Source of the DNA: Thermoanaerobaculia bacterium
GTDB lineage: Bacteria; Acidobacteriota; Thermoanaerobaculia; UBA5066
Length of the DNA: 64,000 bases
Direction: 5' to 3'
Assembly: GCA_038245905.1 (NCBI GenBank)
Contig: JBBRRY010000013.1
Span: 20,898-84,897 of the forward strand
Position numbers and translations under genes: made by a program
In this document: one piece after another, positions 14,594 through 58,469 of the stretch
Layout of the letters: every line of letters begins with the position of its first letter
Position numbering within the stretch: the stretch's first letter is position 1
The notes under the pieces: generated by a model
Told to the model about the DNA's origin: nothing
Database searches by the model: none
The model's input: the letters and a program-made list of their open reading frames with translations, nothing else

Positions 14594-15532
14594 GTGGCGG
14601 GACGTGCCGCGTCGTCCGCCCTCTTCGTGACGCGCCACCGCGGCCTCAGGGAGCAGCTCAGGCGGCTCCAACGCGCGGTCGACTCGGCCAACACGGTTCT
14701 CCTCCTCGGAGCGCCTGGCACGGGGAAGGACCGGCTCGCGCGCCTCCTGCACGAGCGCTCGACGCGCGCCGGAGAGCCTTTCGTGCGCGTGGATCTCGCG
14801 GCCGTATCGGACGATCTCTTCGAGAGCGAGCTCTTCGGGCACGAGCGCGGCGCGTTCACGGGCGCCGTCTCGGGCAAGCCCGGCCTCCTCGAAGGCGCCG
14901 GCGAGGGCACGCTCTACCTCGACCGGGTCGACGCGCTGTCGCTCCGGGCCCAGGGAAAGCTCCTTCGCGTCGTCGAGGAGCGTCTCGTGCGTCGCGTCGG
15001 AGGCACCCGTCTCCTGCCGCTCAAGGCGCGCCTCGTGGCCTCGGCCGGTCCCGACCTGCCGCGTCAGGCGCGCGCGGGGACGTTCCGGGAGGATCTCTAC
15101 TACCGGCTCGCGGTCGTCACGGTGAGCCTGCCTCCGCTGGTCGAGCGCCGCGAGGACCTTCTTTCCGCGGCGCGTTCTCTCGCGAAAGCCGGCGGCGGCC
15201 CGGCCGTGTTCACGGCGGCCGCACGGCGCGTGATCCTGGGGCACGCCTGGCGCGGCAACTTCCGCGAACTCGAGAACGTCGTTCGAAGAGCCGCGAACGA
15301 AGCGCTCGCGGACAGGGCTGGCGCGATCGACGCCGCGCACCTGAAGCTCGCCGGTCCGTCGGACCCCGAGGCGCTTCTTCACGCGGCCGCGCACGCGCGC
15401 TGGTCGCTCCGGCAGCTCACGGGCGCCTACATCTCCCTCATCCTGGACGAGGCGGGTGGAAACGTGGCGGAGGCGGCGCGCCGCCTCGGGGTGGCCCGCA
15501 AGACGCTCTACGCGCGACGGACGCGCTCGTGA
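14594..15532 (+). CDS. Sigma-54-interacting AAA+ protein with Fis-type HTH, no N-terminal sensor domain
   Basis: GAPGTGKD, ESELFGHERGAFTGA, FREDLYYRL, W.GN.RELEN and C-terminal GNV.EAARRLGV.RKTLY. Confidence 0.85.
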   Translation: MAGRAASSALFVTRHRGLREQLRRLQRAVDSANTVLLLGAPGTGKDRLARLLHERSTRAGEPFVRVDLAAVSDDLFESELFGHERGAFTGAVSGKPGLLEGAGEGTLYLDRVDALSLRAQGKLLRVVEERLVRRVGGTRLLPLKARLVASAGPDLPRQARAGTFREDLYYRLAVVTVSLPPLVERREDLLSAARSLAKAGGGPAVFTAAARRVILGHAWRGNFRELENVVRRAANEALADRAGAIDAAHLKLAGPSDPEALLHAAAHARWSLRQLTGAYISLILDEAGGNVAEAARRLGVARKTLYARRTRS

Positions 15533-48801: not shown

Positions 48802-50226
48802 CTAGAGCCCCGTCGCGCGGGACGGCGCGGCCGGCTCGGGCTCGTTCGCCTCTTTTCCGTCTTTTGCGTCGCGCGGCAGCATGCCGTGGCGCTTCAGCAT
48901 CTCGTTCAGCGTCGTCGGCTTGAGGCCGAGGAGCTCTGCGGCGCGCTTCTGGACGCCCGACGCGCGTTGAAGCGCGGCCGAGAGGAGCGCGCGCTCGTAG
49001 GCGGCGACGGCGTCCTTGAACGAGAGCCCTTCGGCGGGCAGCGCGGCGGCGCGCGGCACAGAGCGCCGGACGGTGTCGGGAAGCTGGTCGAGGTCGATCA
49101 CTCCGTGGCCGAGGACGAGCGCCCGCTCGAGGACGTTTTCCAGCTCGCGGACGTTGCCCGGCCAGTCGTGGTCGAGGAGCGCCTTCATGACGGCGGGCGT
49201 GACGGACGGCACCGCCTTGCCATTCTCGGAGGCGGCCCGGGCAAGCAGCGTCTCCACGAGGAGGGGCACGTCCTCGCGGCGTTCGCGGAGGGGCGGGAGG
49301 GGGATCGTGATGACGCAGAGCCGGTAGAAGAGGTCCTCGCGGAAGCGTCCTTCCGCGACGAGCCGGGGCAGGTCGGCATTCGTGGCCGCGATGACGCGCA
49401 CGTCGGCGTACTGAGGTTCGATCGCGCCCACGGGCAGGAACTCCCGCTCCTGCAGGACGCGCAGGAGCTTCGCCTGAGTCTCGATCGGCACCGTTCCGAT
49501 CTCGTCGAAGAAGATCGTGCCCTGGTCGGCGGCCTTGAACAGGCCCTTCTTGTCGGCGACCGCGCCGGTGAACGAGCCGCGCACGTGGCCGAAGAGGTTC
49601 GACTCCAGGAGGTCGGGCGGGAGCGCCCCGGAATGCACGGTGACGAACGGGCCCGACGCCCGCGGAGACAACCGGTGGAGGGCCTTTGCGACGAGCTCCT
49701 TTCCCGTGCCGCTCTCGCCGGTGATGAGGATCGTCGAGCGCGCCGCTGCTGCCTGGCGGATCGTCTCGAAGACGCGTTCCATCGACGGGGAGCGGCCGAT
49801 GATCTCCTTCAGGCCCGGCGGGACGTTGAGCCGCGCCTTGAGGGCGCGGTTCTCGGCCACGAGCTGCCTCTTCTCGAGCGCCTGCTTGACGACGTGCACG
49901 ACCTCTTCGTTCCGGAAGGGCTTGGGCAGGTAGTGAAACGCGCCCTGGCGCATCGCGGAGATCGCGCTTTCGACGGATGAGTACGCGGTCACCACTACGA
50001 CGGGCACCTCGGGATGCCGCGCCTTTACCTCCGAGAGAACTTCGAGGCCGGGCCGGTCCGGGAGCATGAGGTCGAGGAGCAGGAGGTCGATGGGCTCTTT
50101 CTCGAGACGCTCGAGCCCCTCGGCCGCGGTCGCGGCTTCGCGCGTCACGAATCCGGCCTTCGCGAGGACGGATCCCAGCACGTCGCGGATGACAGGCTCG
50201 TCGTCGAGGATCAGGACGGTGGGCAT
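48802..50226 (-). CDS. Sigma-54-dependent response regulator (NtrC family: REC-AAA-HTH)
   Basis: REC (DDE, LDLMLP, KP); GESGTGKE, GSFTGA, FFDEI, FREDLFYRL and WPGNVREL; C-terminal HTH. Confidence 0.95.
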   Translation of the reverse strand: MPTVLILDDEPVIRDVLGSVLAKAGFVTREAATAAEGLERLEKEPIDLLLLDLMLPDRPGLEVLSEVKARHPEVPVVVVTAYSSVESAISAMRQGAFHYLPKPFRNEEVVHVVKQALEKRQLVAENRALKARLNVPPGLKEIIGRSPSMERVFETIRQAAAARSTILITGESGTGKELVAKALHRLSPRASGPFVTVHSGALPPDLLESNLFGHVRGSFTGAVADKKGLFKAADQGTIFFDEIGTVPIETQAKLLRVLQEREFLPVGAIEPQYADVRVIAATNADLPRLVAEGRFREDLFYRLCVITIPLPPLRERREDVPLLVETLLARAASENGKAVPSVTPAVMKALLDHDWPGNVRELENVLERALVLGHGVIDLDQLPDTVRRSVPRAAALPAEGLSFKDAVAAYERALLSAALQRASGVQKRAAELLGLKPTTLNEMLKRHGMLPRDAKDGKEANEPEPAAPSRATGL

Positions 50227-56072: not shown

Positions 56073-56839
56073 GTGGGCTCCGGGGTGCGGGCCAGGACGA
56101 GCGCCCTGACGTCTCTTGCTCCTGCCTCGCGAAGGGCGCGGGCCGCGGCGAAGAGAGTCGCGCCCGTCGTGACGACGTCGTCCACGAGGACGAGGACTCG
56201 CCCCCGCGCGCGAGGGGAGGCGGCAAAGGCCCCCTCCACGTTCGCGCGGCGCTCGGCGGCAGGCAGCGAGGATTGTGGAGGCGTCTCGCGCGAGCGGGAG
56301 AGGAGGGAGCGCCGCGGCGTCGCGAGGAGGCGCCCGGTCTCGTCGGCCAGAAGCATGGCCGGATCGTACCCGCGTTCGTGATTGCGCCGGCGGGTCGAGG
56401 GCACGGGCACGAGCGCGTCGGCACCCGAGGCGATCGCGACCGACCGCGCGAGAGCGGCGAGACGCACGCCGAGGGGAGCGGCGAGGAGATCCCAGCCAGC
56501 GAACTTGAATGCGTGATGGAGGGTGCGCAGCCCGCCCGTGTAAAGCCCGAATGCCGCGGTTCGCGTCACCGGCGGCGGATGAAGGCGACAGGCGGCGCAC
56601 GGAGAGCCGCCGGACGGGAGCGCGCAATGCGGGCACGCGAGCGCCGCGTCGAGTACGGGGAGCGCGGCCCAGCAGGAGCGGCATACGCCGCCGCCGCCGA
56701 GGTCGACGCGCGCCGCCTCGCAGACGGCGCAGCGCGACGGAACGAGGAGCGCAAGGAGCGGAGCGAGGAGAGGCGCGAAGGCAGGCGCGAAAAACCCGCT
56801 CCCGGGAGTTGGTTTGAGAGAGAGCTCCTCAGGCGGCAC
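56069..56839 (-). CDS. ComF family protein (double zinc ribbon plus PRTase)
   Basis: CxxC pairs; VPVP, RGY, Q..L...R..N and LVDDVVTTGAT. Confidence 0.9.
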   Translation of the reverse strand: MPPEELSLKPTPGSGFFAPAFAPLLAPLLALLVPSRCAVCEAARVDLGGGGVCRSCWAALPVLDAALACPHCALPSGGSPCAACRLHPPPVTRTAAFGLYTGGLRTLHHAFKFAGWDLLAAPLGVRLAALARSVAIASGADALVPVPSTRRRNHERGYDPAMLLADETGRLLATPRRSLLSRSRETPPQSSLPAAERRANVEGAFAASPRARGRVLVLVDDVVTTGATLFAAARALREAGARDVRALVLARTPEPT

Positions 56840-56930
56840 GACCCTGGATTCTAGACGAGAGCCTGCCGGCCTCCGTATCCGCAATATGCGTATTCTCCGA
56901 CCGACCAGCCCCGGCGTATCCTCCTTGCCG

Positions 56931-57542
56931 ATGACACTGCGATTTTCCCGCGCGCTTGTCCGGGACGCCGCTCTCGCAGCCCTTCTCGCCGGCCTCTCTC
57001 TTCCCGCGGCCGCTCAGACGAACCGTCAGTCGGAGTTTCCCTTCGCCTTCGGCGCGGGCGGATTCGCGGTGACCGACACCGGACGGCCCGCGGACGTGAA
57101 GGCGTTTTCGACGGGAGGATTCCGCGTCTTCGCGGACGTCGAGCTCGAGTCGGGCGTGTTCCTTCAAGCGCGCTACGAGAACTTCCTTCTGCCGGGTTCG
57201 GAAGTGGCCGCGCCCCCGTTTCAGCAGTCTGCGGGCGACTCTCCGCGAGTGAAAGTGAACGGAGGCAGCCTGTCCGTCGGATACCTGTTCCGGGAAGCCT
57301 GGTGGCAGGCCGGACTCGTCGCCGGCGTCGGCGTATTCGGGCTGTCGCCGCGCGACCCGGAGGCCGGTCAGGTGCCCGCGGACGTCCGCGAGACCGTGAT
57401 CGGCTGGCACGCCGGACTGCTGACGATCTTCCAGCTCGGGAAGCGCCTGGACCTCCGGATCGAGGCCACGGGATATCTCCTCAGGACCGATGCTTCACAC
57501 AAGCCGGTCCTTGTCGGCGCTTCCCTCGCCTATCGCTTCTAG
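56931..57542 (+). CDS. Small outer-membrane beta-barrel protein
   Basis: Signal peptide ending AAA; alternating beta strands; C-terminal LAYRF. Confidence 0.72.
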   Translation: MTLRFSRALVRDAALAALLAGLSLPAAAQTNRQSEFPFAFGAGGFAVTDTGRPADVKAFSTGGFRVFADVELESGVFLQARYENFLLPGSEVAAPPFQQSAGDSPRVKVNGGSLSVGYLFREAWWQAGLVAGVGVFGLSPRDPEAGQVPADVRETVIGWHAGLLTIFQLGKRLDLRIEATGYLLRTDASHKPVLVGASLAYRF

Positions 57543-57580
57543 GTAATCCCGATCACATTCGCGAGGCCCAGACGGTGGGC

Positions 57581-57609
57581 TCCCACCCGACCTTTCGGTC
57601 GGGCGGGGA
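57581..57609 (-). terminator. Strong hairpin (terminator or 3' structure of the small transcript)
   Basis: Minus strand CCCGCCCGACC-GAAA-GGUCGGGUGGG has a GNRA loop and a G-U pair; the plus strand would give an A-C mismatch. Confidence 0.6.
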
Positions 57610-57627
57610 TTGCGGCGGTAGGATTGA

Positions 57628-57723
57628 CTAACTGAGGTATTTGATGGAGGGAAGAATCTGGAGGGCCCGACGGCTGGAAGGCCGGCGGGACTGGAGGGCG
57701 GGCGTGAAGATCGTCGTATTCAT
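57628..57723 (-). CDS. Putative 31-aa peptide MNTTIFTPALQSRRPSSRRALQILPSIKYLS (or part of an sRNA)
   Basis: ATG about 36 nt after a predicted sigma-54 start site; 23 of 30 non-start codons end in G/C; followed by a hairpin; no well-spaced SD. Confidence 0.45.
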   Translation of the reverse strand: MNTTIFTPALQSRRPSSRRALQILPSIKYLS

Positions 57724-57770
57724 TTGATGTTTAGTCGAAATGTCCGTTTCGATCTCCTGCCTATTAGTAC

Positions 57771-57785
57771 GCAAGGCCGGTGCCT
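57771..57785 (-). promoter_or_regulatory. Sigma-54 (-24/-12) promoter of an unannotated small transcript
   Basis: Minus strand AGGCAC-CGGCC-TTGC; partial IHF-like sites at 57805-57817 and 57827-57839; candidate enhancer repeats at 57885-57921. Confidence 0.65.
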
Positions 57786-57928
57786 CTGGTTTCCCGAGCT
57801 CGTGAATCAAGCTACAAATTGCTAGACGCCAAAGACTTATGCCGGATTCTGGCCCATTCAGGGGGGCCGGAGGGGACGGGCCGAGAGATCGAAAACGGAC
57901 ACTCCCGGTGCAAAAACGACAGTCTGGC

Positions 57929-58387
57929 TCAGATCCCTTCGAGGAGCGGGAGCAGCGTGGAGTCCTTCTTGACGGAGAGCGACAGCTCGACGTGAGTTCT
58001 GACCACGCCCCGGATCGTCTGAATCTTCTCGCGCAGGATCACTTCCAGATGCTCCACGTCGCGGGCCCGGATCTTGAGCCGATAGCCGAAATTTCCCGAG
58101 ATCGCGTAGCACTCCTGAACGTCGAGCAGCGCCTCGATCTCCTCGAGAAAAGGGCGCTCGAAGCGGGGGTGCTCGAGGAGGACGTCCACATGCGCCACAA
58201 GGGGCATTCCGACGAGACGGGGATCGAGGAGCGCCGTGAAACGCCGGATGAAACCGCGCGTCTCGAGCTTCTTGATCCGTTCGTTCACCGACGGCGTGGT
58301 GAGGCCTACCGTTTCCGCGATTCTCGCCTGCGAGATCTTGGCGTCTCGTTGAAGAATGTCGAGGATACGGCGATCGATGTCGTCCAT
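57929..58387 (-). CDS. Lrp/AsnC family transcriptional regulator
   Basis: MDDIDRRIL..LQ.DA.IS...IAE.VGL...V.ERIKKLE..G.I; EC..ISG..Y.LK. Confidence 0.93.
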   Translation of the reverse strand: MDDIDRRILDILQRDAKISQARIAETVGLTTPSVNERIKKLETRGFIRRFTALLDPRLVGMPLVAHVDVLLEHPRFERPFLEEIEALLDVQECYAISGNFGYRLKIRARDVEHLEVILREKIQTIRGVVRTHVELSLSVKKDSTLLPLLEGI

Positions 58388-58426
58388 ATAAAATTCGGCT
58401 TGAGGGTTCGAAACCCGAACTTTATA
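58387..58426. promoter_or_regulatory. Inverted repeat abutting the lrp start codon (candidate operator or leader hairpin)
   Basis: TATAAAATTCGG ... CCGAACTTTATA, 11 of 12 positions complementary. Confidence 0.45.
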
Positions 58427-58469
58427 CGGTCGCGAGGCCGGAAGCAACCGGCTCGCCCCGGCCTCGGGG

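Follow-up and report, generated by a model that had tools for sequence, protein, structure and literature searches.

Several bacterial small RNAs (sRNAs) depend on sigma-54, namely Qrr1-5 (LuxO), GlmY/GlmZ (GlrR), CrcZ (CbrB), NrsZ (NtrC) and Pxr of Myxococcus, and we know of no conserved open reading frame (ORF) in Qrr, GlmY/GlmZ, CrcZ, NrsZ or Pxr. Other sRNAs are C-rich and pair with ribosome-binding sites, i.e. 6C/B11 of the Actinobacteria, RsaE/RoxS of the Firmicutes and the CcsR or 'cuckoo' RNAs of the Alphaproteobacteria; in 6C/B11, RsaE/RoxS and CcsR the C-runs are found in hairpin loops. Acidobacteriota are among the most abundant soil bacteria, and to our knowledge no regulatory RNA of this phylum has been characterised so far. 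Here we analyse a spacer within a 64,000-nt stretch of DNA from a Thermoanaerobaculia bacterium of this phylum (assembly GCA_038245905.1, contig JBBRRY010000013.1, positions 20,898-84,897, forward strand), hereafter called the window, on which all coordinates are based. The spacer lies between a gene for an Lrp/AsnC-type regulator (lrp) and a gene for an outer-membrane beta-barrel protein (OMP), and it very probably holds a real, autonomous small RNA gene of the sigma-54 type that forms a new RNA family.

Like the sigma-54-dependent sRNAs, this is a stand-alone gene with a -24/-12 promoter and an upstream element at a distance typical of enhancer sites. Unlike them, it belongs to a different phylum, shows no homology to any of them and has no activator gene adjoining. 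An earlier reading made from the letters of the DNA (the sequence-only reading) had compared the unit with the Qrr RNAs. The sigma-54 promoter and the small size agree with this comparison but homology does not, so the likeness is one of analogy only. As in 6C, RsaE and CcsR, there are unpaired CCCUCC and CCCACC segments complementary to GGAGG-like sequences, in a high-GC organism; the differences are that most of the C-runs are spread over long unpaired stretches or flank the terminator on either side, and that the RNA has no Rfam match. GlnZ is reported (PMC9731577) to be cut from the 3' untranslated region (UTR) of glnA, whereas the RNA described here has its own promoter.

The closest kind is that of the dual-function sRNAs, i.e. 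SgrS/SgrT, AzuCR/AzuC, VcdRP/VcdP, Spot 42/SpfP, SR1/SR1P and rnTrpL/peTrpL, and especially SgrS/SgrT. The common features are a short transcript, a small ORF in the 5' part and a separate, better conserved candidate pairing region next to the terminator. AzuCR (164 nt with a product of 28 residues) and VcdP (29 residues) are similar in size to our RNA and its ORF. A review on dual-function RNAs (PMC12612679) states that not all SgrS homologues carry sgrT, and the ORF of our RNA is likewise dispensable in part of the family. The same review describes SR1P as conserved, while the peptide encoded here is without amino-acid constraint, and the terms RpoN and Acidobacteri have no occurrence in it. 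There is no sequence or Rfam relation to any of these RNAs, the promoter is of the sigma-54 type, and both translation and pairing are in our case predictions.

A match to a known family had been named by the sequence-only reading as a point to be checked. The Rfam scan gave no family match (E up to 10 in the window and up to 1 in the loci of six relatives); the best hit in the window, CRISPR-DR9, reached 20.8 bits against a threshold of 45 and covered the terminal hairpin only. Searches of the literature on small RNA and sigma-54 in Acidobacteria, and on sRNAs in Thermoanaerobaculia, found no description of this RNA. The kinds to which it belongs, sigma-54-dependent sRNAs and dual-function RNAs, are already known; what is unusual is the evolution of the ORF and the flipping of the whole cassette.

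Architecture of the RNA gene

The unit is read on the minus strand, where the transcript begins with GCAGGAGAUCG from 57760. Its parts are as follows.

57543-57928: spacer between two genes that converge into it
57921-57908 and 57901-57885, minus strand: upstream repeats TGTCGTTTTTGCAC and TGTCCGTTTTCGATCTC, separated by 6 nt, 126-162 nt before the predicted start
57785-57771, minus strand: sigma-54 promoter AGGCACCGGCCTTGC, i.e. AGGCAC-CGGCC-TTGC, with the -24 GG at 57784-57783 and the -12 GC at 57772-57771
57760-57570, minus strand: predicted transcript of about 190 nt, with a predicted start near 57759 and a conserved end near 57572
57757-57750 and 57713-57706, minus strand: 5' stem P1, GGAGAUCG pairing with CGAUCUUC, 8 pairs around a variable insert that holds the AUG
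57723-57628, minus strand: ORF MNTTIFTPALQSRRPSSRRALQILPSIKYLS of 31 codons, from ATG at 57723 to TAG at 57630-57628
57666-57689, minus strand: internal hairpin P2 within the ORF, CCCG-C-CGGCC, loop UUCCA, GCCG-U-CGGG
57609-57665, minus strand: unpaired C-rich, G-poor stretch (23 C and 5 G of 57 nt) with CCCUCCA twice, the candidate seed region
57610-57626, minus strand: family-invariant motif AUCC(C/U)ACCGCCGCA after the stop codon
57582-57607, minus strand: 3' hairpin P3 of 11 bp, one of them G-U, capped by GAAA; probably the terminator of both this RNA and the OMP gene
57572-57581, minus strand: tail A-GCCCACC-GU after P3

Promoter and upstream element

The sigma-54 promoter proposed by the sequence-only reading is present in the window, with GG at -24 and GC at -12 in the exact spacing, and it is shared by the relatives. 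GGCA-N6-TTGC is kept in all 45 aligned loci of the window's family, and the stricter GGCAY-N5-TTGC is found at the same place in 44 of them. In 41 of the 45 loci the conserved GGAG of the RNA 5' end comes 13-14 nt after TTGC; in the other four the crude search matched an earlier GGAG. Genus g18 carries the textbook TGGCAT-N5-TTGC, and the full TGGCAY-N5-TTGC occurs both in this genus and in the sister family, in which 26 of 29 loci have GGCAY-N5-TTGC. Sites of the form GGCAY-N5-TTGCR are rare, with only 25 on both strands of the whole 3.8-Mb genome. The genome contains a single rpoN (one Sigma54_DBD match, 214.8 bits) and 28 matches to Sigma54_activat, all above the cut-off, some of which are pieces of one gene; the number of activator genes is put at roughly 24. 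Consensus scans of the spacer for sigma-70 promoters and terminators gave nothing relevant. We infer that the gene depends on sigma-54 in vivo.

The enhancer-like repeats noticed in the sequence-only reading were found as well, directly behind the stop codon of lrp. All 28 aligned loci of the genus carry the first half-site, TGTCG..GCAC, but only the 17 closer ones the second repeat; in other genera a two-part element stands equally far upstream, but it is a different one. The element is a candidate upstream activating sequence (UAS) for an enhancer-binding activator.

Two additional observations concern this region. A perfect 10-nt inverted repeat, GAGATCGAAA, flanks the promoter (57747-57756 and 57885-57894, 128 nt apart) and extends, with one gap, to GAGATCGAAA(A)CGGACA; one arm is the RNA 5' end and the other the second upstream repeat, and the arrangement is confined to the 17 closer genus members. 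One protein could bind on both sides of the promoter. Within the window there are also two genes for sigma-54 activators (49303-49803, minus strand, and 14630-15124, plus strand), the nearer of which is about 8 kb from the RNA.

Fold and strand of the RNA

In a model-fitted alignment of 45 sequences, 96.1% of the cells of the whole fold are paired, and 17 pairs have changed on both sides; shuffles gave 6.9 +/- 1.5 such pairs, with none of 500 reaching 17, and slid controls gave 2-6. P1 is paired in 95.5% of the cells, with an invariant G-U at its second pair (45 of 45). Compensatory changes were found at 7 of the 9 pairs of P2 and at 4 of the 11 pairs of P3, the latter being paired in 100% of the cells. 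Because a model-fitted alignment favours the structure of its own model, a second test on an independent MAFFT alignment matters here. This test used 44 of the 45 sequences (one was without the anchor) and covered the 3' two thirds of the RNA. It recovered 4 pairs of P2, with 3-11 sequences changed on both sides, and 9 pairs of P3, and 7 of these 13 pairs showed compensatory changes.

The RNA strand folds with a z-score of -2.0 (8 of 200 shuffles as good) versus -0.4 for the opposite strand, and G-U is found in 22 of the 45 sequences at one pair of P3. The minus strand, which the sequence-only reading had chosen, is fixed by the promoter, by the invariant G-U of P1, by the G-U of P3 and by the z-scores taken together. 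The GNRA-capped hairpin with a G-U pair that it had drawn is P3, and within the genus the loop reads GAAA, GCAA or GUAA. Its hairpin of UCGAAA and UUUCGA does not extend beyond the genus; the helix found family-wide at the 5' end is GGAGAUCG/CGAUCUUC. A pairing between GACUAA and UUAGUC had to be abandoned, since GACTAA is replaced by GACCAA or GACAAA in the relatives and TTAGTC stays unchanged, without compensation. Behind P3, CCCRCC follows the hairpin in all rows of alignment A2, and the tail of the sister family reads GCCC(U/G/A)CC at the matching place.

Distribution in the window's family

The genome of the window has one copy of the stretch. In a first draw, blastn found it in 24 of 24 other genomes of the genus and in 0 of 16 genomes of the two other families of the order; over the whole genus it was present in 28 of 29 genomes, the missing one being 56% complete. 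The core that can be aligned in the most distant members of the genus, 57796-57566, takes in the promoter and everything up to the hairpin's end.

Three covariance models were used, R1 built on 28 genus sequences, R2 on the whole family and R3 on the sister family. R1 gave exactly one full-length match in each of 60 of 63 family genomes, covering 9 of the 10 genera. The tenth genus was recovered with R2 (E 3.2e-10); among the remaining genomes, one of genus g18 gave only E 0.39, and the incomplete member of the genus was without a match. In the rest of the order R1 matched 0 of 81 genomes of family f2 and 0 of 7 of family f3, and R2 found nothing in 135 further genomes of the class outside the family except a 26-nt hairpin match; these numbers mean not found in the genomes searched, and not absence. 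Promoter and structure are both conserved in the relatives.

A degenerate pattern proved too loose for a scan. Only 21 of the 80 loci that it listed were confirmed by R1, all with R1 scores identical to those of family members found before; the rest are chance matches in high-GC genomes. In one g18 genome, G076, the family model gave a further full-length match that is weak (C29:6203-6349, 25.7 bits, E 6.9e-4) and could be a diverged second copy.

A flipped cassette in the sister family

The sister family (f2) has an orthologous lrp gene (56-58% identity), and the OMP gene that comes next is again the convergent one. Four sister genomes were inspected; in two of them the spacer between these genes holds, on the opposite strand, a perfect TGGCAC-N5-TTGCA and a C-rich RNA with a GGAGG hairpin at the 5' end, an internal hairpin and UCCCRCC behind the stop; these two RNAs end with a GAAA-capped terminal hairpin and a GCCCNCC tail. 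With its filters off, R2 aligned to the sister RNAs over their full length at 20.3 and 14.1 bits. By blastn the sister RNA is present in 39 of 91 genomes (g7 8/10, g5 3/3, g8 13/15, g2 13/15, g20 1/1, g21 1/1) and was not found in g4 (0/30) and g9 (0/12). These tallies include one unpublished genome, G025, which was excluded from all alignments. In the class sample, R3 matched 10 of 18 sister-family genomes and nothing outside four genera of that family, again in the sense of not found in the genomes searched.

In the 29 sister loci analysed by tblastn, lrp is downstream and on the opposite strand in 26 and upstream on the same strand in 2, and OMP is upstream on the same strand in 25. In other words, the cassette is flipped within the same lrp-OMP spacer in 26 of 29 loci (loci L310-L339; e.g. 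L304:2040-2213, minus strand). The sequence-only reading had seen no obvious use of the promoter for either flanking gene, and the flip in the sister family supports an autonomous unit. Two sister loci, L333 and L339, have the orientation of the window's family, which argues that the cassette was inverted in place more than once. In genera g4 and g9 (L302 of G027, L305 of G040) the lrp-OMP spacer measures about 130-150 nt and is without a sigma-54 motif or the RNA; the cassette was either lost there or is located elsewhere.

Concerning the fold of the sister RNAs, RNAalifold on their MAFFT alignment missed most of P2, and a P2 drawn by hand was 80.6% paired with covariation not above that of the slid controls. 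Since they agree in place, promoter type, ORF length and the design of the 3' part, the RNAs of the two families are likely homologous, which is short of proof.

Transcription

Seven runs recorded as RNA and an eighth that we guessed to be RNA, from six studies, share a few words with the stretch. Metatranscriptome contigs from four runs, each of a different study, cover 57543-57793 with a likeness of 85-99%, and run X7 contains three contigs that are at least 99% alike. No contig lies over 57807-57869, and the uncovered parts are not evidence of silence; the cover favours the conserved part, because the contigs of relatives align best where conservation is highest. Four short contigs of run X2 end at 57758 and one of X7 at 57760, while three contigs start at 57572. 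We read the contigs as hinting weakly at transcription of the unit.

The C-rich part and a possible mode of action

The 60 nt behind the stop codon are the most conserved part of the unit. The C-rich stretch is single-stranded in the consensus fold, ATCCCRCCGYCGCA is invariant across the 45 sequences, and AUCCCRCCGYCGCA stands directly before P3 throughout the family. As the sequence-only reading had counted, CCCTCCA occurs three times (starting at 57698, 57665 and 57651) and CCTTCCA once (57681), in the loop of P2.

Of the functional readings we somewhat favour a sigma-54-activated, trans-acting RNA of the dual-function type, whose C-rich part pairs with G-rich sites of mRNAs. Under some nutritional signal, an enhancer-binding activator would bind the element about 130-160 nt upstream and open the sigma-54 promoter. 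The RNA would then fold, with the 5' stem tying up its own GGAG and with the internal and terminal hairpins in place, so that the C-rich, nearly G-free stretch would be left single-stranded. The invariant AUCCCACCGCCGCA before the terminator may pair in trans with G-rich regions of mRNAs, e.g. ribosome-binding sites, possibly assisted by Hfq, as the genome encodes this protein (63 bits). In most lineages the RNA would also carry an ORF of about 30 codons that is probably read by ribosomes, its peptide being free to vary. With its defined promoter type, structure and candidate pairing region, a single copy per genome and a fixed address in two families, the RNA is a testable entry point.

Several points weigh against this picture. 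Firstly, the U-tract after P3 is short and lies 8-9 nt from the stem, so intrinsic termination is not assured. Secondly, the activator and the UAS are both predictions. Thirdly, the transcription evidence consists of assembled contigs of relatives, which cannot show ends, strand or level. Fourthly, homology across the families rests on weak model scores together with shared place and design, and under standard filters the model of each family misses the other family. As to the ORF, the divergent members of the genus have its frame broken or shifted, with other stops ending it, and the conservation of the frame in the sister family could mean that there the peptide, not the RNA, is the effector. 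Finally, the target searches were negative. A genome-wide scan for 11-mer complements gave 216 matches without a pattern, and no target was identified. The complement of the invariant motif matches 12 contiguous bases in the lptB-rpoN spacer of the window's own genome, which made rpoN a candidate target, but the site is not conserved: in 30 relatives it reads GCGGCGCTAGAATC or CAGAGCTAGAATC, with complementarity only in the 6 closest genomes, and we ascribe it to chance. RNAduplex of the whole RNA against the start regions of four neighbouring genes produced unrealistically long duplexes that were not used.

The comparison of rpoN leaders brought out a separate feature. TAGAAT (G000 C1:206440-206502, i.e. 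L243:364-426) is constant in the rpoN leaders of the 30 relatives while the bases around it vary, and it is probably the -10 box of the promoter of rpoN itself.

The open reading frame

The 31-codon ORF listed in the sequence-only reading was confirmed. Its frame is intact in the 17 closer genomes of the genus, and it is 93 nt long in 15 of the first 20 genus loci examined. A first interpretation took it for accidental, as the frame shifts within the genus and g18 is without the ATG; this changed with the conservation of the frame in the sister family. There, the lengths from ATG to TAG are 87, 90, 93, 96 and 99 nt, five length classes that are multiples of three in 27 of 27 cases, and the distance from TAG to the hairpin, 41-45 nt, is spread 11/10/6 over the residues modulo three. 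In the sister-family alignment A3 all gaps in the ORF span 3 or 6 columns and those behind the stop 1-2 columns; by our own reading, there were at least seven indel events in the ORF, all multiples of three, and at least five events of 1-2 nt behind the stop.

These data speak for a small-protein gene, in which a basic peptide of 25-33 residues, made from a sigma-54-controlled mRNA, would be the effector and the 3' part would be a UTR with a terminator. In the window's family, too, the ATG is in frame with a conserved AUC-UUC in 40 of the 41 sequences that have an ATG. GC at the third codon position is raised (0.74-0.79 versus 0.51-0.61 at the first and second positions; 0.51/0.55/0.78 for the 31-codon ORF). 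A Shine-Dalgarno sequence next to the AUG is missing in the window's genus; genus g12 has AGGGA 7 nt before the AUG, and several members of the sister family have GGAGG, GGGGA or GGGAG 6-9 nt before it.

We nevertheless consider a small-protein gene unlikely. pN/pS is 1.18 in frame versus 0.98 and 0.94 in the shifted frames, and third positions are not the most variable. Between the ATG and the end of P2 there are 43 or 46 nt in the closer members of the genus and in g12 and g11, but 40, 42 or 45 nt in the divergent members and in g17, i.e. the frame is broken there. In genus g18 the ATG is absent and stops are scattered in 16 of 16 aligned loci (the corresponding distance being 42 or 44 nt), yet promoter, P1, P2 and the 3' domain are all kept. 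Residues that do persist are those encoded by the RNA motifs, and the nucleotide motifs remain while the frame over them shifts (SRRP becomes PAGL, GRRAL becomes ADGPS). Moreover, conservation is higher in the untranslated 3' part than in the ORF. The open frame as such is uninformative, because 27 of 29 and 26 of 28 sequences have no stop in the +2 frame. A genome-wide codon reference from long ORFs turned out to be contaminated by antisense ORFs and was not used.

The peptides gave no match in Pfam or NCBIfam at E up to 10. The idea that the ORF encodes a precursor of a signalling peptide is not supported, as the sequence is unconserved (the pN/pS given above), no signal-like or hydrophobic segment persists and no family matches. 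Nor does the locus resemble that of a ribosomally synthesised, post-translationally modified peptide or another signalling precursor: the peptide varies freely, and its neighbours are glgC, lrp, OMP and a proline dehydrogenase gene. As far as the alignments go, constraint in many lineages acts on the frame and not on the product, and for one genus the ORF is dispensable; in most lineages it is probably translated into a product that is not conserved. Of the three possibilities left by the sequence-only reading, i.e. peptide, sRNA or both, the last comes closest, with the reservation that the constraint on the RNA is universal but that on the frame is limited to many lineages. A series in which the ORF is framed in one family, drifting in another and lost in one genus may tell how dual-function RNAs arise and decay.

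Conservation of the frame and of the stop position without amino-acid constraint would also be expected if translation itself were the function, with ribosomes opening P2, shielding the body of the RNA from Rho or gating the seed, and with the peptide as a by-product. In both families about 10 nt separate the stop from the invariant UCCCRCC behind it, and CUUC or CCUCC within the ORF pairs with the 5' GGAG. A C-rich, G-poor composition is that of Rho loading sites, and the body of the RNA, with 5 G in 57 nt, is of this type. However, g18 keeps the C-rich body without a start codon, and some members of the window's genus do not keep the frame, so we give this explanation little credit. A wider proposal would have the 30-codon frame of a sigma-54-switched RNA kept for the act of translation instead of its product, with the passage of ribosomes gating the C-rich domain or protecting it from Rho, in a flippable cassette that forms a conserved nutritional module with lrp and the porin-like gene and is the first riboregulator defined in Acidobacteriota. 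Taken as a whole, we regard this proposal as quite unlikely. The trans-acting RNA with a frame of variable product remains the reading that we prefer.

Genes around the RNA

The two flanking genes converge on the spacer as stated in the sequence-only reading.

56814-57542, plus strand: OMP gene, Pfam OMP_b-brl (1.9e-05, under the Pfam cut-off), convergent with the RNA
57929-58447, minus strand: Lrp/AsnC-type regulator gene, Pfam HTH_AsnC-type (2.4e-17) and AsnC_trans_reg (5.4e-15)

The OMP protein matched the same Pfam family in three other genera. Further up the minus strand there is a glgC-like gene and further down it a proline dehydrogenase gene. The surroundings were compared by tblastn in the 45 loci of the window's family. 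All of them have lrp upstream on the same strand (gap 172-227 nt) and OMP downstream on the opposite strand (gap between the 3' ends of RNA and OMP 4-227 nt); glgC is upstream in 43, and the proline dehydrogenase gene is downstream on the same strand, 782-1646 nt away, in 32, the other loci being too short. As the RNA is located near genes of glycogen synthesis, an amino-acid-responsive regulator and proline catabolism, the neighbourhood suggests a role in the balance of carbon and nitrogen.

This arrangement could be taken to mean that the RNA acts in cis, either as a leader or attenuator of the proline dehydrogenase gene on its strand or as a read-through antisense RNA of lrp or of OMP, whose 3' end it abuts. 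We find this very improbable. A whole gene on the opposite strand stands between the RNA and the dehydrogenase gene, and the stable 11-bp hairpin closes the conserved part. In the sister family the cassette is mostly reversed, so there is no constant downstream gene, and neither glgC nor the proline dehydrogenase gene was found in any of the 29 sister loci of about 3 kb. Read-through into a neighbour is disfavoured because the cassette keeps its address and not its direction.

That the RNA titrates a protein, with its CCCNCC motifs sequestering an RNA-binding protein as in CsrB/CsrA or CrcZ/Hfq, is hardly credible: the RNAs of both families do carry five to six C-rich motifs each, placed in unpaired stretches and flanking P3 on either side, and Hfq is present, but CsrA was not found in the genome, no candidate protein was found, and the motifs, being neither GGA nor A-rich, match no known sponge.

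One observation on the 3' side concerns P3. In the loci of genus g18 (L092-L110) the conserved 3' end of the RNA is only 4-6 nt away from the stop of the convergent OMP gene, and because of this small gap the P3 hairpin probably ends both the RNA and the OMP transcripts.

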